Below, one piece after another: positions 2,646-38,746 of a DNA stretch of 64,000 nt. The notes beneath the pieces are model-generated. The model ran no database searches. It saw only the letters and a list, made by a program, of their open reading frames with translations, and had not been told where the DNA came from. The position numbers and the translations under genes are program-made. Source of the DNA: Candidatus Woesearchaeota archaeon (GTDB lineage: Archaea; Nanobdellota; Nanobdellia; SCGC-AAA011-G17; GW2011-AR18); assembly GCA_018302545.1 (NCBI GenBank), contig JAGVZM010000001.1, forward strand, positions 79,033-143,032, written 5' to 3'. The stretch's first letter is position 1. Every line of letters starts with the position of its first letter.

Positions 2646-4128
2646 CCACCTTTAAACCTAAGCTTTCTAAACCTTTCTTCAATTTATCTTCTTGAACATT
2701 TCCTCTTGAAACATTAGCTAAAATAGCAAAATTCTTTCTTAATCCAATTGGAGTTCCCTCTGGAGTTTCAACTGGACACAATCTTCCCCAATGAGTAGGA
2801 TGTAAGGCCCTAGCCTCAAAGTTTTCTTGAGTACTAGTCAACAATGAAGCAATCCTTTGTAAATGTGAATAAGTAGCTAAAGTATTAGACCTATCTATAT
2901 TCTGGCTAATACCCTTTCTGCCTCCAGTCCAAGTTCCAGTAGCTAAAGAGCTTTTAATGCTAGAACTTAATAACTCGTCTCTGATTATGATCTTAATACT
3001 CTGGAATTTTCCTCTTTTAACTAATCTCTGGAAGTTATATAGTATATCTTGAACTAAACTTCTTAGATTACTTCTCATCAAATCTTCTAATAAATCTCCA
3101 CTTAATTTTAATCTTTTATTCATATAATGATCTTTGTCTGGGAGAGGTAAACCTTCTTCGCTAACTTGTAAAAATCTCTTTATCATTTTACATATGTTGT
3201 ATGCTTTAATCATTCTTTGTTCTGGATTTGTTCCTAAATGAGGCAATAAGTATTTATCCAACTGTTCTCTAGCCCTTTCTAATTTAATCTCTCTTGTCTG
3301 AGCAACACCAATTTTCTTTGCTAGATATTCTAAAGCATCTTCTTCTGTTTTTAATTCTGCAGCATCATAAAGATTAATAAAAATAGAATCATAAGTTTTA
3401 TCTGGAGAGATCATCTTAACTATATCTTGATCTTTAATCATACCCAAACCCTTTAAGACTGGAACTAAAGGAATTCTCCTAAATCTTGTAAAAGTTAAAT
3501 AAAATATGCCATCTTTCATCTGTTCTACTGTATGTGGAATTCTATAACTTCCCATTTCAGAGAAAACCTTAGCAACATACTCACTAGGCCCAATATCCTT
3601 TTTTTCAATAAAGAACCTATTAGAAGCTAAATCTTCAACATTAATCATAACCCTCTCATTTCCATTAACAATAAAGTAACCACCGACTTCATCAGGATCT
3701 TCTCCCTTAGCAATTAATTCATCCCTCTTCAAACCATGTAAATGACAATATTTAGATTTTAACATAATAGGAAGTTTACCTATCATAGTAACAAAACTCT
3801 CTCTTTGTACCTCATCTACATATGCACTAACTTCTAAATATATTGGAGCAGAATAAGTTAAAGCTCTTAATCTAGCTTCACTAGGGTAAATCTCTCTTTT
3901 GCTTCCATCAGCTTCTATTATGTTTGGTTTTTCAATCCAAATCTTTTTTAATTTTATAACAAAACTCTCTACTTCTTGTGGAATAATTGTAGGATTTATA
4001 TCTCCAACTTCATCAACTAGAAGTTGTAACCTTCTTTCAATAAAATCATTAAAACTATTTATATTTGCATCTACAAAAGGATAATCCTTGAAATATGTTT
4101 TAATTAGATCTTTATAACCTTCAATCAT
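2638..4128 (-). CDS. rpoB2: RNA polymerase subunit B'' (N-terminal half of split RpoB)
   Basis: 496 aa ending ...WGRLCPVETPEGTPIGLRKNFA, conserved in the RpoB N-terminal region. Immediately downstream of rpoH. Confidence 0.95.
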   Translation of the reverse strand: MIEGYKDLIKTYFKDYPFVDANINSFNDFIERRLQLLVDEVGDINPTIIPQEVESFVIKLKKIWIEKPNIIEADGSKREIYPSEARLRALTYSAPIYLEVSAYVDEVQRESFVTMIGKLPIMLKSKYCHLHGLKRDELIAKGEDPDEVGGYFIVNGNERVMINVEDLASNRFFIEKKDIGPSEYVAKVFSEMGSYRIPHTVEQMKDGIFYLTFTRFRRIPLVPVLKGLGMIKDQDIVKMISPDKTYDSIFINLYDAAELKTEEDALEYLAKKIGVAQTREIKLERAREQLDKYLLPHLGTNPEQRMIKAYNICKMIKRFLQVSEEGLPLPDKDHYMNKRLKLSGDLLEDLMRSNLRSLVQDILYNFQRLVKRGKFQSIKIIIRDELLSSSIKSSLATGTWTGGRKGISQNIDRSNTLATYSHLQRIASLLTSTQENFEARALHPTHWGRLCPVETPEGTPIGLRKNFAILANVSRGNVQEDKLKKGLESLGLKVVA

Positions 4129-15641: not shown

Positions 15642-17117
15642 TCAGTTAGATTTAGTTTCCCAATATTTTAACAACTGAATAGCTAATCTCACGCCCACAC
15701 CAGTTCCACCAACAGGATTTAAAGGTTCACTTTTAGTAGTCCAAGCAGTTCCAGCAATATCTAAATGTACCCATTTCTTGCAATCAACAAATTCTTTTAA
15801 GAACATAGCTGCAGTAATAGCTCCCCCATCTCTAGGTCCACAATTTTTTAGGTCTGCAACATTACTTTTAATATACTCTTTATATTTATCATGTAAAGGT
15901 AATCTCCAAACCTCCTCTCCTGTTTTTTCTCCTGCAATAGTTAACTTCTGAGCCAATTCATCATCTGTACTAAACATCCCAGTAAATATATCTCCTAAAG
16001 AAATAACACAAGCACCAGTTAAAGTAGCAAAATCAATAACAGCTTTAGGCTTAAAATTTTTAGAATAAGCTAAAGCATCAGCCAAAATCAATCTACCCTC
16101 TGCATCAGTATTTATAATCTCAGAAGTTTTTCCATTATAATGTTTAATTATATCTCCTGGTTTGTAAGCATTGCCTCCTGGTAAATTCTCAACTGTAGGA
16201 ATTAAACCAACTAAATGATAAGGCAATTTTAATCTTGCAGCAGCTTCTATTAAACCTAAAACAACAGCACCACCACTCATATCAAACTTCATCTCATCCA
16301 TTGCAGCACTAGGCTTTATTGAAATACCGCCAGAATCAAAAGTAACACCTTTACCAACAAAACAAATTGTTTCTTTCCCTCCCATATATTCCAAAACAAT
16401 AAACTTAGGTTCATGCCCACTTCCCTTACTAACAGCAATCATACCACCCATACCAATTTTTTCAATATCATTCTTATCATATACTATACATTTTAGTTTA
16501 TTTCTTCTAGCAATTCTTTTAGCTTCATTAGCAAGATAAGATGGAGTAACTACATTACTAGGCTTATTCTGCAAGTCTCTAACATAACAAACAGAATCAC
16601 TAATAATCAAAGCATCTCTTATACCCTCATCTATCTCCATAAAGTTATTTGCATTAGCAATAAGTGTAAATTGTTCAACTTTATTAAGATCTTCTAGACC
16701 TTGAGTTTTAAAATGATTAAAATTATATAAAGCCAATTTTACAGCTTCAACAGAACAGTAAGCAGCATTATAAGGTCTTAAATCCTCAAACAAAACTAAA
16801 CTAAATTCTTTTATTGAATTATCCCTTAAATAAACAGCAACTTTGGCTATAACTTGTCTAGCTTTATTAACATTGAATTCCTTTTCTTTTCCTAAACCAA
16901 CTAACACTAATCTCTTTATTTTTCCTTTTAGTCTCAACATAGAGATCTTACAAAACTTTCCAGTAAATTCCTTGTCATTAACTAAATCTCCAACCAAACC
17001 CTCAGAAATAACATTATAGACTCCTAAATCATCCTTATGCATTTCTTCGTATAAACCTACAACTAAAGCTTCAGTATTTAGTTCACCAGGATCCTTAGTA
17101 AATAACACTACTTTCAT
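15642..17117 (-). CDS. pepA: leucyl aminopeptidase (M17 family)
   Basis: M17 signature NTDAEGRLILADALAY and metal-binding region VGKGVTFDSGGISIKP. Confidence 0.9.
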   Translation of the reverse strand: MKVVLFTKDPGELNTEALVVGLYEEMHKDDLGVYNVISEGLVGDLVNDKEFTGKFCKISMLRLKGKIKRLVLVGLGKEKEFNVNKARQVIAKVAVYLRDNSIKEFSLVLFEDLRPYNAAYCSVEAVKLALYNFNHFKTQGLEDLNKVEQFTLIANANNFMEIDEGIRDALIISDSVCYVRDLQNKPSNVVTPSYLANEAKRIARRNKLKCIVYDKNDIEKIGMGGMIAVSKGSGHEPKFIVLEYMGGKETICFVGKGVTFDSGGISIKPSAAMDEMKFDMSGGAVVLGLIEAAARLKLPYHLVGLIPTVENLPGGNAYKPGDIIKHYNGKTSEIINTDAEGRLILADALAYSKNFKPKAVIDFATLTGACVISLGDIFTGMFSTDDELAQKLTIAGEKTGEEVWRLPLHDKYKEYIKSNVADLKNCGPRDGGAITAAMFLKEFVDCKKWVHLDIAGTAWTTKSEPLNPVGGTGVGVRLAIQLLKYWETKSN

Positions 17118-17414
17118 AAAGAAAAGGCAAAATATTGTGTTTATTAAGTTTATCCTGGTTTAGAATATAATTTAAATATCTATAAGAAACTAAATAAAGA
17201 TGAAGAATAAGAAAGTAATTAAAATTATAGGATTAATAGTAATTATAGTTATGATAGCAAACCTTATTCTTTTTGCAGCAGGAGTAATAAATATAATAAA
17301 ATTTTGGGTGATAATAATAACTGGAGCAATAATAACCTATAAGATAATACCTTTAATAAAAAAGTAATTTAAAATAATACTAAAATTTATATAACAACAA
17401 TAGGTCAAAGAAAC

Positions 17415-18122
17415 ATGTTAAAAATATATAACACCTTAACAAGAAAAAAAGAAGAATTTGTCCCATTAAAAGGAAAAGAAGTAAAAGCATTTGAATGTGG
17501 CCCCACAGTTTATGATCATGCGCATTTGGGGCATGCAAAAACAGCAATACAATTTGATATTATTATAAAGTATTTAAGATATAAAGGCTACAAAGTATTC
17601 TACATAAAAAACATAACAGATATAGATGATAAAATAATAAAAAGAGCTCAAGAAAGAAAAACAACATGGGATAAAATAGCAAGAGAATACGAATCATCTT
17701 ATCTAGAAGACATGAAAAATCTAGGCGTTGATTCTGTAAACAAATTCCCAAGAGCAACAGACTACATTCAAGAAATTATTTCACAAGTAAAAAGATTAAT
17801 AAAAAAAGGGGTTGCATATAAAATTTCTGATGGTTATTATTTTGACTTAACAAAATTCCCAGATTATGGAAAATTAGCTAAAAGAAATTCTCAAGAAGAA
17901 GGAGACGATATTTCTAGAATAGATGAAAACGAAGAAAAGAGAAATAAGGGAGACTTCTGCTTATTAAAATTTAGCAAGAAAGGCGAACCTTATTGGGAAG
18001 ATATTCTAGAAATTGAAATTTCCGAAAGAGAGTATGAATCTATTATAAAAGAAGCAATCAAAAATAATGATGAAGAATTTTTAAAATTAAATAATATAAA
18101 TAAAACAAGATGGAAAAAATAA
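17415..18122 (+). CDS. cysS: cysteinyl-tRNA synthetase, N-terminal fragment (split gene)
   Basis: CGPTVYDHAHLGHA (HIGH motif) and NITDIDDKII...KGEPYW follow the CysRS consensus up to nt 17999. A 40-codon non-CysRS tail then runs to the stop. Confidence 0.8.
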   Translation: MLKIYNTLTRKKEEFVPLKGKEVKAFECGPTVYDHAHLGHAKTAIQFDIIIKYLRYKGYKVFYIKNITDIDDKIIKRAQERKTTWDKIAREYESSYLEDMKNLGVDSVNKFPRATDYIQEIISQVKRLIKKGVAYKISDGYYFDLTKFPDYGKLAKRNSQEEGDDISRIDENEEKRNKGDFCLLKFSKKGEPYWEDILEIEISEREYESIIKEAIKNNDEEFLKLNNINKTRWKK

Positions 18123-18980
18123 ACTTATGCAAAGGAGGATGTGAAAATAAGGCAATGTATAGTGGTTGGTGCGGTTTAAGATGGAGAAAGAAAAATAAAA
18201 TTAGTGTAAGTTGTCCTAAACTTGAAGAAAAACGAGGAATGGCAATTTCAAGATATAGAATAAAAGAAGCAAAGTTAGGTCTTAACCCAATGCAAAATCC
18301 CGAAATATGCAAAAATAATCATTCGATAGGGAGGAATAAAAAAGCAGCACAGTCGTTAAAAAGATTAGGTAAACTAAAACTTTTACCACAACAAATTGAA
18401 AGTAAATATAAAAGTAAAAAAAGATTAATGAAAATAAGGCAAGCATTACAAAAACTTGTGGCTGAAGGAAAATTAAATCATCAAATTGAATCCCAAGAAC
18501 AGAAAAAATTAAGACATGAAAAAATATCTAAAACTATAACAGAATTATATACCAAAGGATATTATAAAAATTTTACAAAGAAGAAGATAATTTATAACTC
18601 AAAATCAAATGGAAAAGTATACTTTCGTTCTAAATGGGAGCTAGAAGTAGCAAAGCTATTAGATAAGAGTAATATTAAATGGCTATATGAACCATTTGCA
18701 ATACCCTATACAGATGATAATAAAAAGAAGCATAATACAATACCTGATTTTTATTTACCAAAATATAAAAGTATAATAGAGGTTAAAGGAGATAGAAAAG
18801 ATTTTATTTCAAATATTAAAAATAAAGAGAAAGGAATCAGAAAGAAGGGTTTTAATTTTTACTTATGGATGGAAAAGGAAATAAAAATGATTAGAAAAGG
18901 AAATTCCCAAATACTTTTAGAAAACATAAAAAATGTAGAGGTAGAAAATAATGCCTAAAATAAAATTAAAAATAAAATTC
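18000..18980 (+). mobile_element. insertion interrupting cysS (carries a Zn-ribbon/PD-(D/E)xK nuclease-like ORF); homing-endonuclease-like element or intron
   Basis: CysRS similarity stops after ...GEPYWE (17999) and resumes at RPGWHIE (18981). The intervening sequence encodes the 18110..18958 ORF in a different frame. Confidence 0.4.
18110..18958 (+). CDS. Zn-ribbon plus PD-(D/E)xK (DUF559/Vsr-like) endonuclease-domain protein encoded within the cysS interruption
   Basis: N-terminal 4 Cys (CKGGC...WCG...SCP). C-terminal FRSKWELEVAKLLD...YEP...PDFYLPKYKSIIEVKG matches the D...(D/E)xK nuclease core. Overlaps both cysS fragments by 13 and 8 nt. Confidence 0.55.
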   Translation: MEKINLCKGGCENKAMYSGWCGLRWRKKNKISVSCPKLEEKRGMAISRYRIKEAKLGLNPMQNPEICKNNHSIGRNKKAAQSLKRLGKLKLLPQQIESKYKSKKRLMKIRQALQKLVAEGKLNHQIESQEQKKLRHEKISKTITELYTKGYYKNFTKKKIIYNSKSNGKVYFRSKWELEVAKLLDKSNIKWLYEPFAIPYTDDNKKKHNTIPDFYLPKYKSIIEVKGDRKDFISNIKNKEKGIRKKGFNFYLWMEKEIKMIRKGNSQILLENIKNVEVENNA

Positions 18981-19763
18981 AGACCTGGATGGCATATTGA
19001 AGACACAGCAATAACAGAAAAAGAATTAGGACAGCAGTATGACCTACATGGTGGAGGTTCTGGATTAATCTTCCCACATCATGAAGCAGAGATAGCACAA
19101 ATGGAATCCATATCCGGAAAAAAACCATTTGTAAAATATTGGATGCATACAGGATTATTAAATGTAAATTCTGAAAAAATGGCTAAATCTTTAGGAAACT
19201 TTACAACAATTAAAGATGCTTTAAAAAATTATAATAAAGAAACCATAAGATATTTATTTGCATCCTCTAATTATAAAAATCAAACAGACTTTACTCAAGA
19301 ATCATTAGAAAACGCAAAAAACAATGTATCAAAAATAAATGAATTTGTGTTAAACATAAAAAATTATAAATCAAAATCAAAAGATTTTCCAAATACAAGT
19401 TATTTAATCACTGCAACAAAAACAAAATTCGAAGAAGCAATGGATGATGATTTTGAAACTGCAAACGCACTAACAGTTATTTTTAATTTCATAAAAGAAG
19501 TAAATAAATTAATAGCAGAAGAAAAATTATCTACAAAAGATTGTAAAACAATAAAAAAATTTATGGACGAAATAAATTCAATCTTTGGAATTATAGAAAA
19601 AGAAGTAAAGATTCCCAAAAATATATTAGAATTAGTAGAAAAAAGAAACAAAGCAAGAGAAGAAAAAAATTATAGGTTAGCAGATGAAATAAGACAGTTA
19701 ATAGTTGAAGAAGGTTATTATATTGATGATTCAAAATCAGGAACAATAATAAAAAAATTATAA
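18951..19763 (+). CDS. cysS: cysteinyl-tRNA synthetase, C-terminal fragment (split gene)
   Basis: RPGWHIE, HGGGSGLIFPHHEAEIAQ and KMAKSLGNF (KMSKS) are the CysRS catalytic-core second half. Same reading frame as the N fragment. Confidence 0.8.
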   Translation: MPKIKLKIKFRPGWHIEDTAITEKELGQQYDLHGGGSGLIFPHHEAEIAQMESISGKKPFVKYWMHTGLLNVNSEKMAKSLGNFTTIKDALKNYNKETIRYLFASSNYKNQTDFTQESLENAKNNVSKINEFVLNIKNYKSKSKDFPNTSYLITATKTKFEEAMDDDFETANALTVIFNFIKEVNKLIAEEKLSTKDCKTIKKFMDEINSIFGIIEKEVKIPKNILELVEKRNKAREEKNYRLADEIRQLIVEEGYYIDDSKSGTIIKKL

Positions 19764-20981
19764 ACCAAATATTTCTTCATATGTAGAATCACCAACAAGA
19801 GAAGATAATCTATCATAACCTTGGTTTTTTTCCCATTCTAAAAGTTTATCAAAAAGATCTTTATCTGCTCTATTACTCAAATCAGAAAGCTGTGCTAAAG
19901 TAGATAAATCTCTCGAATCAGCTCTTTGCATATTAAACAATCTATCCCAAAGTAATGTACTTGCAATAGTAGTAGGATAAGCAGCAACAGTTTTAGGCAT
20001 CCTTATCGATGGCACAAGACCAACAATAGCATTGGGCCTAAGGTGATTATAAATATGAATAGAGGAAGAATCCATTTTTGCAGTTTGTTTTGTAAAGACA
20101 TCAGCATGTCTAGGTGATTTTAAAACTCCCCCCAATTCATAACTAAGTAAATCTCCACAAGAAAACCAAATAGAATCAGGATCTAAAGTATAATTAACAT
20201 AAGTTCTATCCCCTGTCTCCAACATTAAACCTAAAGAATCACTATATAATAAAGTAGACAATAAACAAATATGTGTTTTAGGGCTTAATGTTATCCCGCG
20301 CCTAGCTATAGATCCATCAGTTAGTTTAACATTAGATGTTTTTAAACCATTAACATCTTCATAATCAATGTTTCCATTAATCGCTCTACGATGGTTTAAT
20401 CTAATAACACTATCACCATAAACATATCTAGCAGCAAAGTATCCATGATGGACACCACATCCTTTAGCTAAAGAAGTTAATACAGGTAAAACTCTTTTTT
20501 CATTAACTTCAATTATTAATTCTGAAAGAGTAATAATCTTATCAACAATATCAGCAAGTTCTTTATTATCTTTAACAGCTTCTCTAATTTTATCATTAGG
20601 AATATAAGCAACACCATTAGGAGTTATAGGACTTCCTAAAACAAGGTTTCTACCAACAGTAAATCTTTCTACAAATTCTGTAAATCCATATTGCCCGACA
20701 GCTTCAGATCTTATAGGTAAATATCCTCTTTGTCCATTAGTATCATGAATACAAGCTTTCATCCTTTCTTTTAAAGGAAATCCTAAAAATTGATTGAATT
20801 TTTCAAGTAATAAATCCCTTAGGTGATCAAAATGTAAAGCAGCAGGAACACCGTGAAAAGCATTTCTAAGACCTAATAATTTAACATCTCTAAAAACATT
20901 ATACACATCCCTTCCAAATTGAAGAGGATCTTTAAAAATATCTTGATAATCTAAAATAGTTTTAACAACTTCTGTTTCCAT
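19758..20981 (-). CDS. conserved hypothetical protein (407 aa), non-typical composition
   Basis: Long ORF with no motif I can assign. R/L/S/G-rich, unlike the K/N/I-rich norm here. Confidence 0.45.
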   Translation of the reverse strand: METEVVKTILDYQDIFKDPLQFGRDVYNVFRDVKLLGLRNAFHGVPAALHFDHLRDLLLEKFNQFLGFPLKERMKACIHDTNGQRGYLPIRSEAVGQYGFTEFVERFTVGRNLVLGSPITPNGVAYIPNDKIREAVKDNKELADIVDKIITLSELIIEVNEKRVLPVLTSLAKGCGVHHGYFAARYVYGDSVIRLNHRRAINGNIDYEDVNGLKTSNVKLTDGSIARRGITLSPKTHICLLSTLLYSDSLGLMLETGDRTYVNYTLDPDSIWFSCGDLLSYELGGVLKSPRHADVFTKQTAKMDSSSIHIYNHLRPNAIVGLVPSIRMPKTVAAYPTTIASTLLWDRLFNMQRADSRDLSTLAQLSDLSNRADKDLFDKLLEWEKNQGYDRLSSLVGDSTYEEIFGL

Positions 20982-38361: not shown

Positions 38362-38736
38362 GGCAAGGTACTTAACTACGGATCTATATGGAGATTAAGC
38401 CTTAAAAAGCTAAATTTCAGAGATTCTGAGGAAAGTCCGCCCACTACCTGTGTCTAATGACCTAGGTCCCAGTTTGGGGGTTGCTTACTTTGTAAGTTCC
38501 AGTAATGGAAGGCAACTTTAAAGAAACGAAACGCCCTATAAAATTGGAATGATGTAGCGAAGATTTTGGTGACAAAATCAAGATAACCTGCTGACGTCTT
38601 TATAGGAAACGATGAAACGAAAGATCCCAACCAGTGCAAGTCTTCGAGACGCTTAGTAGAATGTTAAGACAAAGTATCGCGAGAACTGCAAAATAGTTTT
38701 CGTTTGGCTTTGACAAAAGGCGGCTTATTCCTTGCC
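38362..38736 (+). ncRNA. rnpB: RNase P RNA
   Basis: P4 5' strand GAGGAAAGUCCGCCCAC and P4 3' strand ACAAAAGGCGGCUUAU (consensus ACAGAA.CCGGCUUA). P1 terminal helix GGCAAGG...CCUUGCC. Confidence 0.7.
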
Positions 38737-38746
38737 TAAAATATTT

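Follow-up and report, generated by a model that had tools for sequence, protein, structure and literature searches.

The gene cysS, which encodes cysteinyl-tRNA synthetase (CysRS), lies in two pieces in a stretch of 64,000 nt from the genome of a Candidatus Woesearchaeota archaeon (positions 79,033-143,032 of contig JAGVZM010000001.1), which is called the window in what follows. The gap between the N-terminal and the C-terminal piece, referred to as the N piece and the C piece, is taken up by an open reading frame (ORF) for a putative nuclease. All three ORFs, which had been proposed in an original prediction made from the sequence alone, were recovered at the same coordinates (Table 1), and so were the short overlaps between them. 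The N piece overlaps the nuclease ORF by 13 nt (18110-18122), the stop of the former and the start of the latter reading ATGGAAAAAATAA, and the nuclease ORF overlaps the C piece by 8 nt (18951-18958), where its stop and the start of the C piece read ATGCCTAA.

Together, the two pieces make up a CysRS from which very little is missing. The N piece matches positions 2-182 of the CysRS family PF01406 (expect value, E = 2e-57) and positions 1-194 of TIGR00435, and the C piece matches positions 189-300 of PF01406 (E = 4.5e-44), DALR_2, and positions 201-465 of TIGR00435. In the original prediction, the N piece was said to leave the CysRS consensus after GEPYWE and the C piece to resume it at RPGWHIE, and the alignments with the Escherichia coli enzyme (1li5) agree with this: residues 1-195 of the N piece align with residues 1-195, and residues 11-266 of the C piece with residues 202-457. 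The sole part of CysRS that is replaced is a surface loop at residues 196-201 (SPWGAG in E. coli), directly before the RPGWHIE strand. The Rossmann fold is divided between the pieces: its first half is in the N piece, along with the CP domain, and its second half is in the C piece, along with the KMSKS motif, the DALR domain, and the anticodon-binding end. The HIGH and KMSKS motifs and the Zn and cysteine-site residues are intact, all parts of the split locus are under purifying selection, and no second cysS gene was found within the 64-kb window. Both cysS pieces start at coordinates divisible by three, with the nuclease ORF in a different frame. This shared frame of the two pieces, to which the original prediction had drawn attention, holds in the window but is not a meaningful sign. 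In relatives, the pieces are often in differing frames, e.g., frames 3/2/1 for the three ORFs of locus L002, and the agreement in the window is therefore a coincidence.

Table 1. Position of features of the split cysS locus in the window and of mini-introns in cysS of relatives
Feature	Sequence	Position	Strand	Remark
cysS N piece	window	17415-18122	+	235 aa; ORF call
N piece, CysRS-homologous part	window	17415-17999	+	residues 1-195, ends GEPYW-E
Zn ligand Cys28	window	17496-17498	+	in N piece
HIGH motif (HLGH)	window	17523-17534	+	in N piece
N-piece tail	window	18000-18122	+	residues 196-235 plus stop codon
Nuclease ORF	window	18110-18958	+	282 aa; overlaps both cysS pieces
Cys4 zinc ribbon (C7, C11, C21, C35)	window	18128-18217	+	nuclease ORF
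Long helical repeats with NPMQN / LLPQQ motifs	window	about 18215-18556	+	nuclease ORF
PD-(D/E)xK core	window	18587-18868	+	nuclease ORF, residues 160-253
Catalytic E177	window	18638-18640	+	nuclease ORF
Catalytic D213	window	18746-18748	+	nuclease ORF
Catalytic E224	window	18779-18781	+	nuclease ORF
Catalytic K226	window	18785-18787	+	nuclease ORF
Shine-Dalgarno-like GAGGT	window	18938-18942	+	8-nt spacer to C-piece ATG; within last nuclease codons
cysS C piece	window	18951-19763	+	270 aa; ORF call
C-piece head MPKIKLKIKF	window	18951-18980	+	Lys-rich alternating segment, includes new start codon
C piece, CysRS-homologous part	window	18981-19763	+	RPGWHIED through anticodon-binding end
RPGWHIED	window	18981-19004	+	in C piece
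FPHHE	window	19071-19085	+	FPHHEAE 19071-19091; in C piece
KMSKS motif (KMAKS)	window	19176-19190	+	in C piece
Bulge-helix-bulge mini-intron	L025 (= L065/L066)	1302-1350
Bulge-helix-bulge mini-intron	L009 (= L021, L011, L047)	3333-3384
Bulge-helix-bulge mini-intron	L018 (= L067)	1479-1527
Bulge-helix-bulge mini-intron	L017	2339-2390
Bulge-helix-bulge mini-intron	L044	340-392
Bulge-helix-bulge mini-intron	L057	500-549

The extra peptides and the nuclease

Each cysS piece carries, at the edge that faces the nuclease gene, a short segment that does not belong to CysRS. In the window, the tail of the N piece, which includes the peptide EAIKNNDEEFLK, consists of a Glu-rich alternating stretch, DILEIEIS, followed by the helix REYESIIKEAIKN and by EEFLKLNNINKTRWKK. 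The junction of head and core in the C piece reads FRPGWHIEDTAITEK. All split alleles have such segments. After the conserved Trp of the N part, they show ~35-45 extra residues, with a Glu-rich segment (ILEIEIS, VFEVEIS, VLDMTLT), (D/E)EY, a helix, and EFLKLN... or ...ILEVEDV, and before G(R/Y/F)PGWH of the C part they show ~10 extra residues with the consensus M(P/K)K(I/V)K(I/V/L)K(L/I)x, then G. Among the 150 best representatives, the intact CysRS proteins (440-520 aa) match the query only to about residue 195-201, so that tail and head can be assigned to a cassette together with the nuclease gene. The three representatives that match well into the tail are 230-312 aa long. Likewise, alignments with CysRS structures in the PDB start at residue 9-12 of the C piece, and intact alleles read ...GRPGWH without the head segment. 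At codon positions 1, 2 and 3, the tail is 67, 81 and 55% identical, which is the pattern of a translated protein. Over 37 loci, the tail has a mean net charge of -3.6 and the head one of +4.4, and an AlphaFold2 model of the N piece alone contains a confident helix at residues 204-216. From these properties, we infer that the tail and head segments pair and help the two halves to find each other. The tail may in part be conserved for its DNA sequence. Its LEV codons read GGAGGT in one subgroup, at Shine-Dalgarno distance to the start of the nuclease gene, and in the subgroup of the window, a TATA-like sequence, TTTTTAAAA (18078-18086), is found within the tail codons, centred 28 nt upstream of the nuclease ATG.

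The overlaps at both ends of the nuclease ORF are present in most of 40 non-redundant loci. Given these overlaps, coupled translation of the three ORFs from a single transcript is probable. A Shine-Dalgarno-like motif precedes the start of the C piece in 15 of 37 loci, and the one in the window presumably serves translation of this piece. A programmed -1 frameshift at TGG AAA AAA TAA, which would lead from the N piece into the nuclease frame, was considered and dismissed, as the overlap sequence is not conserved; the overlaps range from -4 to 23 nt in length, and the N piece ends, e.g., with ...KWLI* in L002.

With a limit of E = 0.01, 113 homologues of the nuclease were found. In an alignment of 41 of them, which are 40-74% identical to the protein of the window, the residues R173, S174, E177, P212, D213, F214, E224 and K226 are invariant, and so are C7, C11, C35, NPMQ, and QQ. 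The four Cys residues on which a zinc ribbon had been predicted (C7, C11, C21, C35) are indeed conserved. When the family profile was compared with the PDB, T7 endonuclease I was found (E = 6e-7 to 4e-5), and RSxWE, PDF and ExK of the nuclease align in this comparison with its catalytic residues, which we take to be E20, D55, E65 and K67. Many of the homologues carry a precomputed match to PF05367, and the protein also matches the phage families PHROG 9019 ("Holliday junction resolvase"; E = 5e-14) and PHROG 22215 (E = 6e-15). An AlphaFold2 model (confidence score pLDDT 87.9; around 90 for the core) shows a zinc-ribbon hairpin, ~115 residues of long helices, and an α/β core at residues 160-253. 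The best match of this model in the PDB, as found with Foldseek, is the catalytic domain of I-Bth0305I (probability 1.0, TM-score 0.64 on the target), followed by Vsr, PvuRts1I and TnsA. In a library of viral structures, 98 matches were found at E up to 1e-3. Some of them extend over the full length of phage proteins that are annotated as endonuclease I, as Holliday junction resolvase, as NUMOD3-containing protein, or as (putative) homing endonuclease.

The assignment to a DUF559/Vsr-type of PD-(D/E)xK nuclease, as initially proposed, can be upheld for the catalytic motif and for the likeness to the Vsr fold but not for DUF559, to which the nuclease showed no match; the nearest families are T7 endonuclease I and, as regards the fold, I-Bth0305I and Vsr. 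At the level of sequence profiles, the match to I-Bth0305I is weak (E = 0.03), and the EDxHD motif is absent, as the residues conserved among the 41 homologues are E, PD and ExK, with no conserved His in the core. No NUMOD domain of Pfam was matched, even with a limit of E = 1. By structure, three neighbours from BFVD that match over the full length bear the name "Nuclease associated modular domain 3", and the KNHSxxRNxKA repeats of the nuclease may resemble NUMOD3. Altogether, sequence profiles and structural models indicate a zinc-ribbon, helical, T7-endonuclease-I-like PD-(D/E)xK protein of the free-standing type found in phages.

Distribution of the cassette and signs of its movement

The arrangement is not peculiar to the window. 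In a set of 69 fetched loci that encode homologues of the nuclease, the N part of cysS is found upstream of the nuclease gene in 61 and the C part downstream in 62; the remaining loci have ≤280 nt of upstream sequence (8 loci) or ≤145 nt of downstream sequence (7 loci). Thus, in every locus with enough flanking sequence, the nuclease gene is located between the N and C parts of cysS, on the same strand and at the same site, and no copy outside cysS was found among the 69 loci. These loci come from many independent assemblies made with several assemblers, which bears on the trivial explanation that the gene is a pseudogene in decay or owes its split to an error of sequencing or assembly. The window does stem from a metagenome-assembled genome, and one of the relatives discussed below, L026, is an example of a short contig with a chimeric end. 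However, with the same arrangement in all these assemblies, with purifying selection on all parts, and with the functional motifs of CysRS preserved, we regard this explanation as scarcely credible.

The hosts of the cassette are DPANN archaea and bacteria of the Omnitrophota. In a metagenome-assembled genome of the latter, the gene order around cysS is bacterial, i.e., mlaE-mlaD-radA-ispD-ispF-(hexapeptide transferase)-cysS-tmk-holB-PSP1-metG, and genes for NAC, thermosome, fibrillarin and Nop56 are found around the archaeal cassettes. The neighbourhood in the window is archaeal as well, with genes for NAC, the thermosome and an archaeal RNase P RNA, and the nuclease is identical to a protein from a metagenome-assembled genome of a Candidatus Woesearchaeota archaeon. 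The last of these genes lies at 38395-38739 (Rfam RF00373, 91.5 bits). ARAGORN detected no tRNA gene across the whole 64 kb. The GC content of the cassette is 26.6% as compared to 29.3% for the window, a comparison in which no compositional anomaly of the cassette was found. The cassette is present in two types of CysRS, one with GWHIE-D, to which the clade of the window belongs, and one with the canonical GWHIE-C. In the window (GWHIE-D, 18996-19004), an Asp is aligned to the Zn ligand Cys209 of the E. coli enzyme; the same Asp (GWHIEDTAI) is found in L001, L002, L012 and L026 and in many intact relatives, a DPANN/CPR (Candidate Phyla Radiation) clade of CysRS, and GWHIEC is retained in more distant split alleles.

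Both uninterrupted cysS genes in relatives and further copies of the insert, which the original prediction had suggested looking for, were found. Besides the 69 loci with the nuclease, there are 72 intact CysRS alleles with an identity of ≥58% over the N core, the best of them 73-88% identical to split alleles. Across the site, the intact allele P0139 reads "...GEPYWETSLEMGRPGWHIEDTAI" and the intact allele L026 reads "...EEPVWHTELGDSRPGWHIEDTAI...", with TGGCATACTGAATTAGGCGATTCAAGACCGGGATGGCATATAGAA as the sequence around the site. At its 3' end (about 1240-1384), the contig of L026 is an inverted copy of itself, i.e., an assembly chimera which leaves the junction region unaffected; the seemingly complete CysRS of 359 aa that is recorded from it (P0142) is therefore artificially truncated. 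Intact alleles can be as close to split ones as split alleles are to each other. To the N core of the window, intact alleles are up to 73% identical, and the closest split allele is 74% identical. The split allele P0118 is 88% identical to the intact P0146 and 75% to the nearest split allele, and for 10 of 40 split alleles the nearest neighbour is an intact one. On a neighbour-joining tree of 112 N cores, Fitch parsimony requires 16 changes between the split and the intact state (14-20 over bootstrap replicates), as compared to 33 ± 2.5 when the labels are distributed at random on the same tree. Thus, the cassette has a patchy distribution and has been gained and lost repeatedly.

The history of the nuclease also departs from that of its host gene. 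For the 32 loci with all three parts, the trees of the host (N and C parts combined) and of the nuclease are in conflict at nodes with 90-100% bootstrap support. For example, L020, L052 and L054 form a clade in the host tree (100%), but L020 groups with L051 and L068 (97%), and L052 and L054 group with L022 (97.5%) in the nuclease tree. The window, too, belongs to a host clade (100%) and a nuclease clade (90.5%) that differ in their members.

One lineage has kept the split and lost the nuclease. In the loci L072-L074 (3501-4998), which are of the Woesearchaeota type and represent a widely sampled lineage, cysS is in two pieces, tail and head are present, and there is no nuclease gene. The N piece ends with "...EEFLKLNSINKKFGRNKNA*" (protein P0125, recorded in 71 assembly blocks), and its stop and the start of the C piece (MPKIKVKFFGRPGWHIED...) share an overlap of 8 nt (ATGCCTAA). 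The last ~20 nt before the start of the C piece are close to the 3' end of the nuclease ORF of L001 (GGAGAATAAAAATAATGCC), and the nuclease ORF of the window ends alike, with ...ENNA* and the same overlap as in L072-L074. As this remnant of the nuclease ORF shows, the lineage arose by an internal deletion of the nuclease gene, and since cysS stays in two pieces after the deletion, the nuclease is not needed for the split CysRS. In the original prediction, a two-piece cysS in close relatives that lack the insert was to count against its reading. Such relatives exist in the form of L072, but with the remnant pointing to a secondary deletion, they strengthen the view that CysRS functions as two polypeptides. 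One clade thus holds all three: the intact gene, the split gene with the nuclease, and the split gene without it.

Origin of the split gene

With good probability, the split cysS is an intein-less "fractured gene" that was made by a cassette with a free-standing homing endonuclease. A mobile cassette, corresponding to ~18000-18980 of the window, would have been inserted into the cysS loop directly before the RPGWHIE strand. Its first part would be ~40 codons in the frame of the upstream cysS piece, providing the N piece with an acidic tail and a stop, the second the gene for a free-standing, homing-type endonuclease with a zinc ribbon, helical DNA-binding repeats and a PD-(D/E)xK core, and the third a new start and 10 codons that provide the C piece with a Lys-rich head. 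CysRS would be assembled non-covalently from the N and C polypeptides, probably aided by the complementary charges of tail and head. The nuclease most likely cuts uninterrupted cysS genes at or near the conserved site, and the cassette would pass to further cysS lineages when the break is repaired from a copy that contains it. Such cut-and-repair spread is proposed as the reason why one and the same site is occupied in many DPANN and bacterial lineages of cysS. We infer the activity and the target of the nuclease, as well as homing by double-strand-break repair, from sequence comparisons. That the two polypeptides reconstitute CysRS is likewise suggested by the selection on both halves, by the intact motifs, and by the persistence of the two pieces in the lineage without the nuclease. 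The original prediction had offered a homing-type insertion, with CysRS working as two polypeptides, as one of two readings. The constant site, the empty alleles, the conserved active site and the conflict between the trees speak in its favour, but not for its additional notion that the insertion was simply fixed.

Several observations weigh against a mobile homing element. A search of 2.9 million viral contigs revealed no relative of the nuclease, and the match of the window protein to PF05367 (28.3 bits) is just below the gathering cut-off of Pfam (29.1) and covers only positions 4-69 of the 149 in the profile. In the AlphaFold2 model of the N piece alone, the Glu-rich segment of the tail is a coil, with mean pLDDT values of 65 for the block of residues 191-200 and 76 for that of residues 201-210. 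Furthermore, the nuclease evolves more slowly than its host, with a mean pairwise identity of 53% as compared to 46-47% and a median distance ratio of 0.76, and its divergence tracks that of the host (r = 0.67-0.82). The nuclease is under strong purifying selection, as judged from its sequences. In a gene that is selfish and nothing else, such slow divergence in step with the host would be unusual, and the nuclease may have a further role that is connected with the host. The pattern also suggests that host gene and cassette are often passed on together or that the tracts of co-conversion are long. No gradient of co-conversion toward the junction was detected; identity between split alleles is ~4 points above that between split and intact alleles and is flat along the N core.

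The slow evolution would be explained if the nuclease had been domesticated, e.g., as a chaperone for the split CysRS or a third subunit of it, as a regulator of the operon, or as an addiction module, and had lost its homing function. Consistent with this option, CysRS is less conserved than the insert in 84-91% of the locus pairs, its ORF overlaps both cysS pieces in most loci, and its copies were found neither outside cysS nor in viral contigs. However, the two-piece cysS persists without the nuclease in a widely sampled lineage, the catalytic residues are strictly kept, and the patchiness, the conflict between host and insert trees, and the occurrence in two domains of life point to continued mobility. 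Domestication is therefore considered unlikely, though it is the most serious competitor of the homing cassette.

The original prediction had also considered that the 981-nt interval might be an intron with a nuclease ORF, either of the bulge-helix-bulge (BHB) type or of group I or II, from which a contiguous cysS mRNA would be made by splicing. Archaeal rRNA introns can carry ORFs for homing endonucleases, and six relatives contain a BHB mini-intron at another site in cysS, from which it follows that splicing machinery acts on cysS mRNA in this clade. But the interval itself shows no trace of an intron. There was no relevant match to Rfam at E up to 10 in 16500-20500, and a scan of the whole window at the gathering thresholds yielded only the RNase P RNA. 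No strict or relaxed BHB motif could be formed between 17970-18125 and 18900-19000, with 2.6 ± 2.2 in shuffled sequences and with the intron of L025 recovered as a positive control, and cofolding showed no pairing between the junction regions. Moreover, substitutions in tail and head follow the pattern of translated protein, each in the frame of its cysS piece, and L072 retains the stop and the start between the pieces although it has no nuclease. We consequently abandon the intron for this interval as very improbable.

In six distinct relatives (Table 1), the mini-intron is an insertion of 28-32 nt located in the N piece of cysS, between the first and the second base of the Thr codon of Cys-Gly-Pro-Thr-Val-Tyr. 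It folds into an outer helix, a 3-nt bulge, a central helix, a second 3-nt bulge, and an inner helix of 8-10 bp. The strands of the central helix are GGCC/GGCC in L025; the other five have one G.A mismatch (GGCC/GGCA in four and GACC/GGTA in L057). The archaeal splicing endonuclease cuts after the second base of each bulge, and such canonical cleavage restores CGPTVY..HIGN in frame in all six. RNAalifold predicts 16 pairs, five of them with compensatory double changes, including one from G-C to A-U in the central helix of L057. Ribosomal bypass of the type known from T4 gene 60, which had been considered for the gap of 28-32 nt, was replaced by the BHB intron in view of the folded motif and the exact restoration of CGPTVY. 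In the window, cysS has no counterpart of the mini-intron at 17490-17535 and reads FECGPTVYDHAHLGHA without interruption. PMC7714728 names the intron of cbf5 in Crenarchaeota (PMC2738675) as the sole BHB intron that had been reported from an archaeal coding region. Judged from the sequences, cysS would be the second archaeal protein-coding region known with such an intron.

In the fractured genes with inteins (Dassa et al., 2009), the order is the same as here, i.e., N part, endonuclease gene and C part, and the halves are ligated by a split intein. For cysS, such ligation is hardly conceivable. Tail and head add up to only ~45-50 residues, as compared to about 100 and 35 aa for the halves of a Hint domain; the head is followed by R, Y, F or A at position +1 instead of by Cys, Ser or Thr; the tail does not begin with a conserved nucleophile; and a Pfam scan found no Hint or intein family.

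Returning to the homing cassette, its two peptides may have a more specific meaning. Possibly, though we hold this a little less probable than the contrary, the cassette is a self-healing gene breaker, which brings its own complementation tags in the form of a Glu-rich strand with a helix and a Lys-rich strand. The tags would let an essential enzyme survive the cutting of its gene without the help of an intein or intron and would thereby permit invasion across the divide between bacteria and archaea. Later deletion of the nuclease gene would leave a permanently split gene. If true, this would constitute a stepwise and still observable route to the split genes of DPANN/Nanoarchaeota genomes. 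As possible tools, tail and head are candidates for natural tags for the assembly of split proteins, and the nuclease, whose architecture has been little studied, is a candidate for a site-specific enzyme.

Related systems and further observations

In phage T4, a mobile endonuclease gene, mobA, splits a host enzyme gene into gene 39 and gene 60, and the cassette brings a short non-coding interruption that is bypassed by the ribosome. In cysS, the short interruption of the relatives is instead a BHB intron, which is absent from the window. A closer precedent is the SbcD-like fractured locus, which has no intein, described by Dassa et al. (2009; PMC2677866), with a tail of 25 and a head of 9 residues that are absent from intact homologues. 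As in cysS (tail ~40 aa, head 10 aa), one enzyme is encoded by two ORFs with an endonuclease ORF between them, without an intein or intron. However, the SbcD-like case is a single marine metagenomic locus, probably of a phage, it concerns a DNA-repair gene, and its nuclease is Vsr-like (later EDxHD). In contrast, cysS encodes an essential aminoacyl-tRNA synthetase in cellular hosts of two domains, its nuclease is of the canonical E-PD-ExK type with more than 100 family members, and a nuclease-less derivative is known. In phage Aeh1, the essential enzyme gene nrdA is split by the HNH gene mobE into nrdA-a and nrdA-b (Edgell and co-workers, as related in PMC2677866). A free-standing endonuclease gene is likewise located there between two co-transcribed genes, whose products cooperate without being ligated, but this endonuclease belongs to the HNH type, its host is a phage, and the activity of the split enzyme has been demonstrated experimentally, whereas the cysS case is known from sequence.

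With I-Bth0305I (PDB 3r3p), the cysS nuclease has the core fold in common, but that enzyme has an EDxHD site and resides in a group I intron. T7 endonuclease I (1m0d, 1fzr, 2pfj) has the same core; unlike the cysS nuclease, it has a length of only 149 aa, acts as a junction resolvase, and lacks both the zinc ribbon and the helical region of ~115 aa. Split aminoacyl-tRNA synthetases have precedents, too: the alanyl-tRNA synthetase of Nanoarchaeum equitans is split, and the leucyl-tRNA synthetase of Aquifex aeolicus is heterodimeric. Here also one synthetase is encoded as two polypeptides, and loci of the L072 type look the same. However, in those cases there is no mobile element at the break, and the pieces may be far apart, while in cysS the breaker is still present. 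The split genes of N. equitans are mentioned in PMC3655853. Full-text literature searches revealed no description of a naturally split CysRS.

Gene breakage by a free-standing homing endonuclease was previously known from phages and from phage-like metagenomic loci. The cysS case would extend it to an essential translation gene and to cellular organisms, i.e., DPANN archaea and Omnitrophota bacteria. Because all three stages survive, the gene-breaking model of Dassa et al. (2009) becomes directly testable within one family, and so does the origin of split genes in reduced archaeal genomes.

Some loci deviate from the general arrangement. In one subfamily, a gene for a HAD-type hydrolase (PF00702) is located between the N piece of cysS and the nuclease gene (L018 2148-2756, = L067). 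The nuclease of this subfamily has an N-terminal extension of ~100 aa without a Pfam match and a total length of 392-411 aa (L009 4001-4300, L018 2758-3000). The protein P0242 (312 aa) comprises the N part of CysRS up to DFCLWKF and continues in frame into a nuclease domain of another family, PDDEXK_3 (PF13366, E = 3.5e-13); thus, a second, unrelated PD-(D/E)xK element may strike cysS at nearly the same place. Finally, in L007, a genome of 695 kb labelled as that of a CPR bacterium, Candidatus Nealsonbacteria (CP179891.1), a gene for a TFIIB/TFB-like protein of 300 aa (PF08271 and PF00382; 2225-3127) lies directly upstream of the split cysS, with bacterial-type dnaX, dnaB and recR genes nearby.

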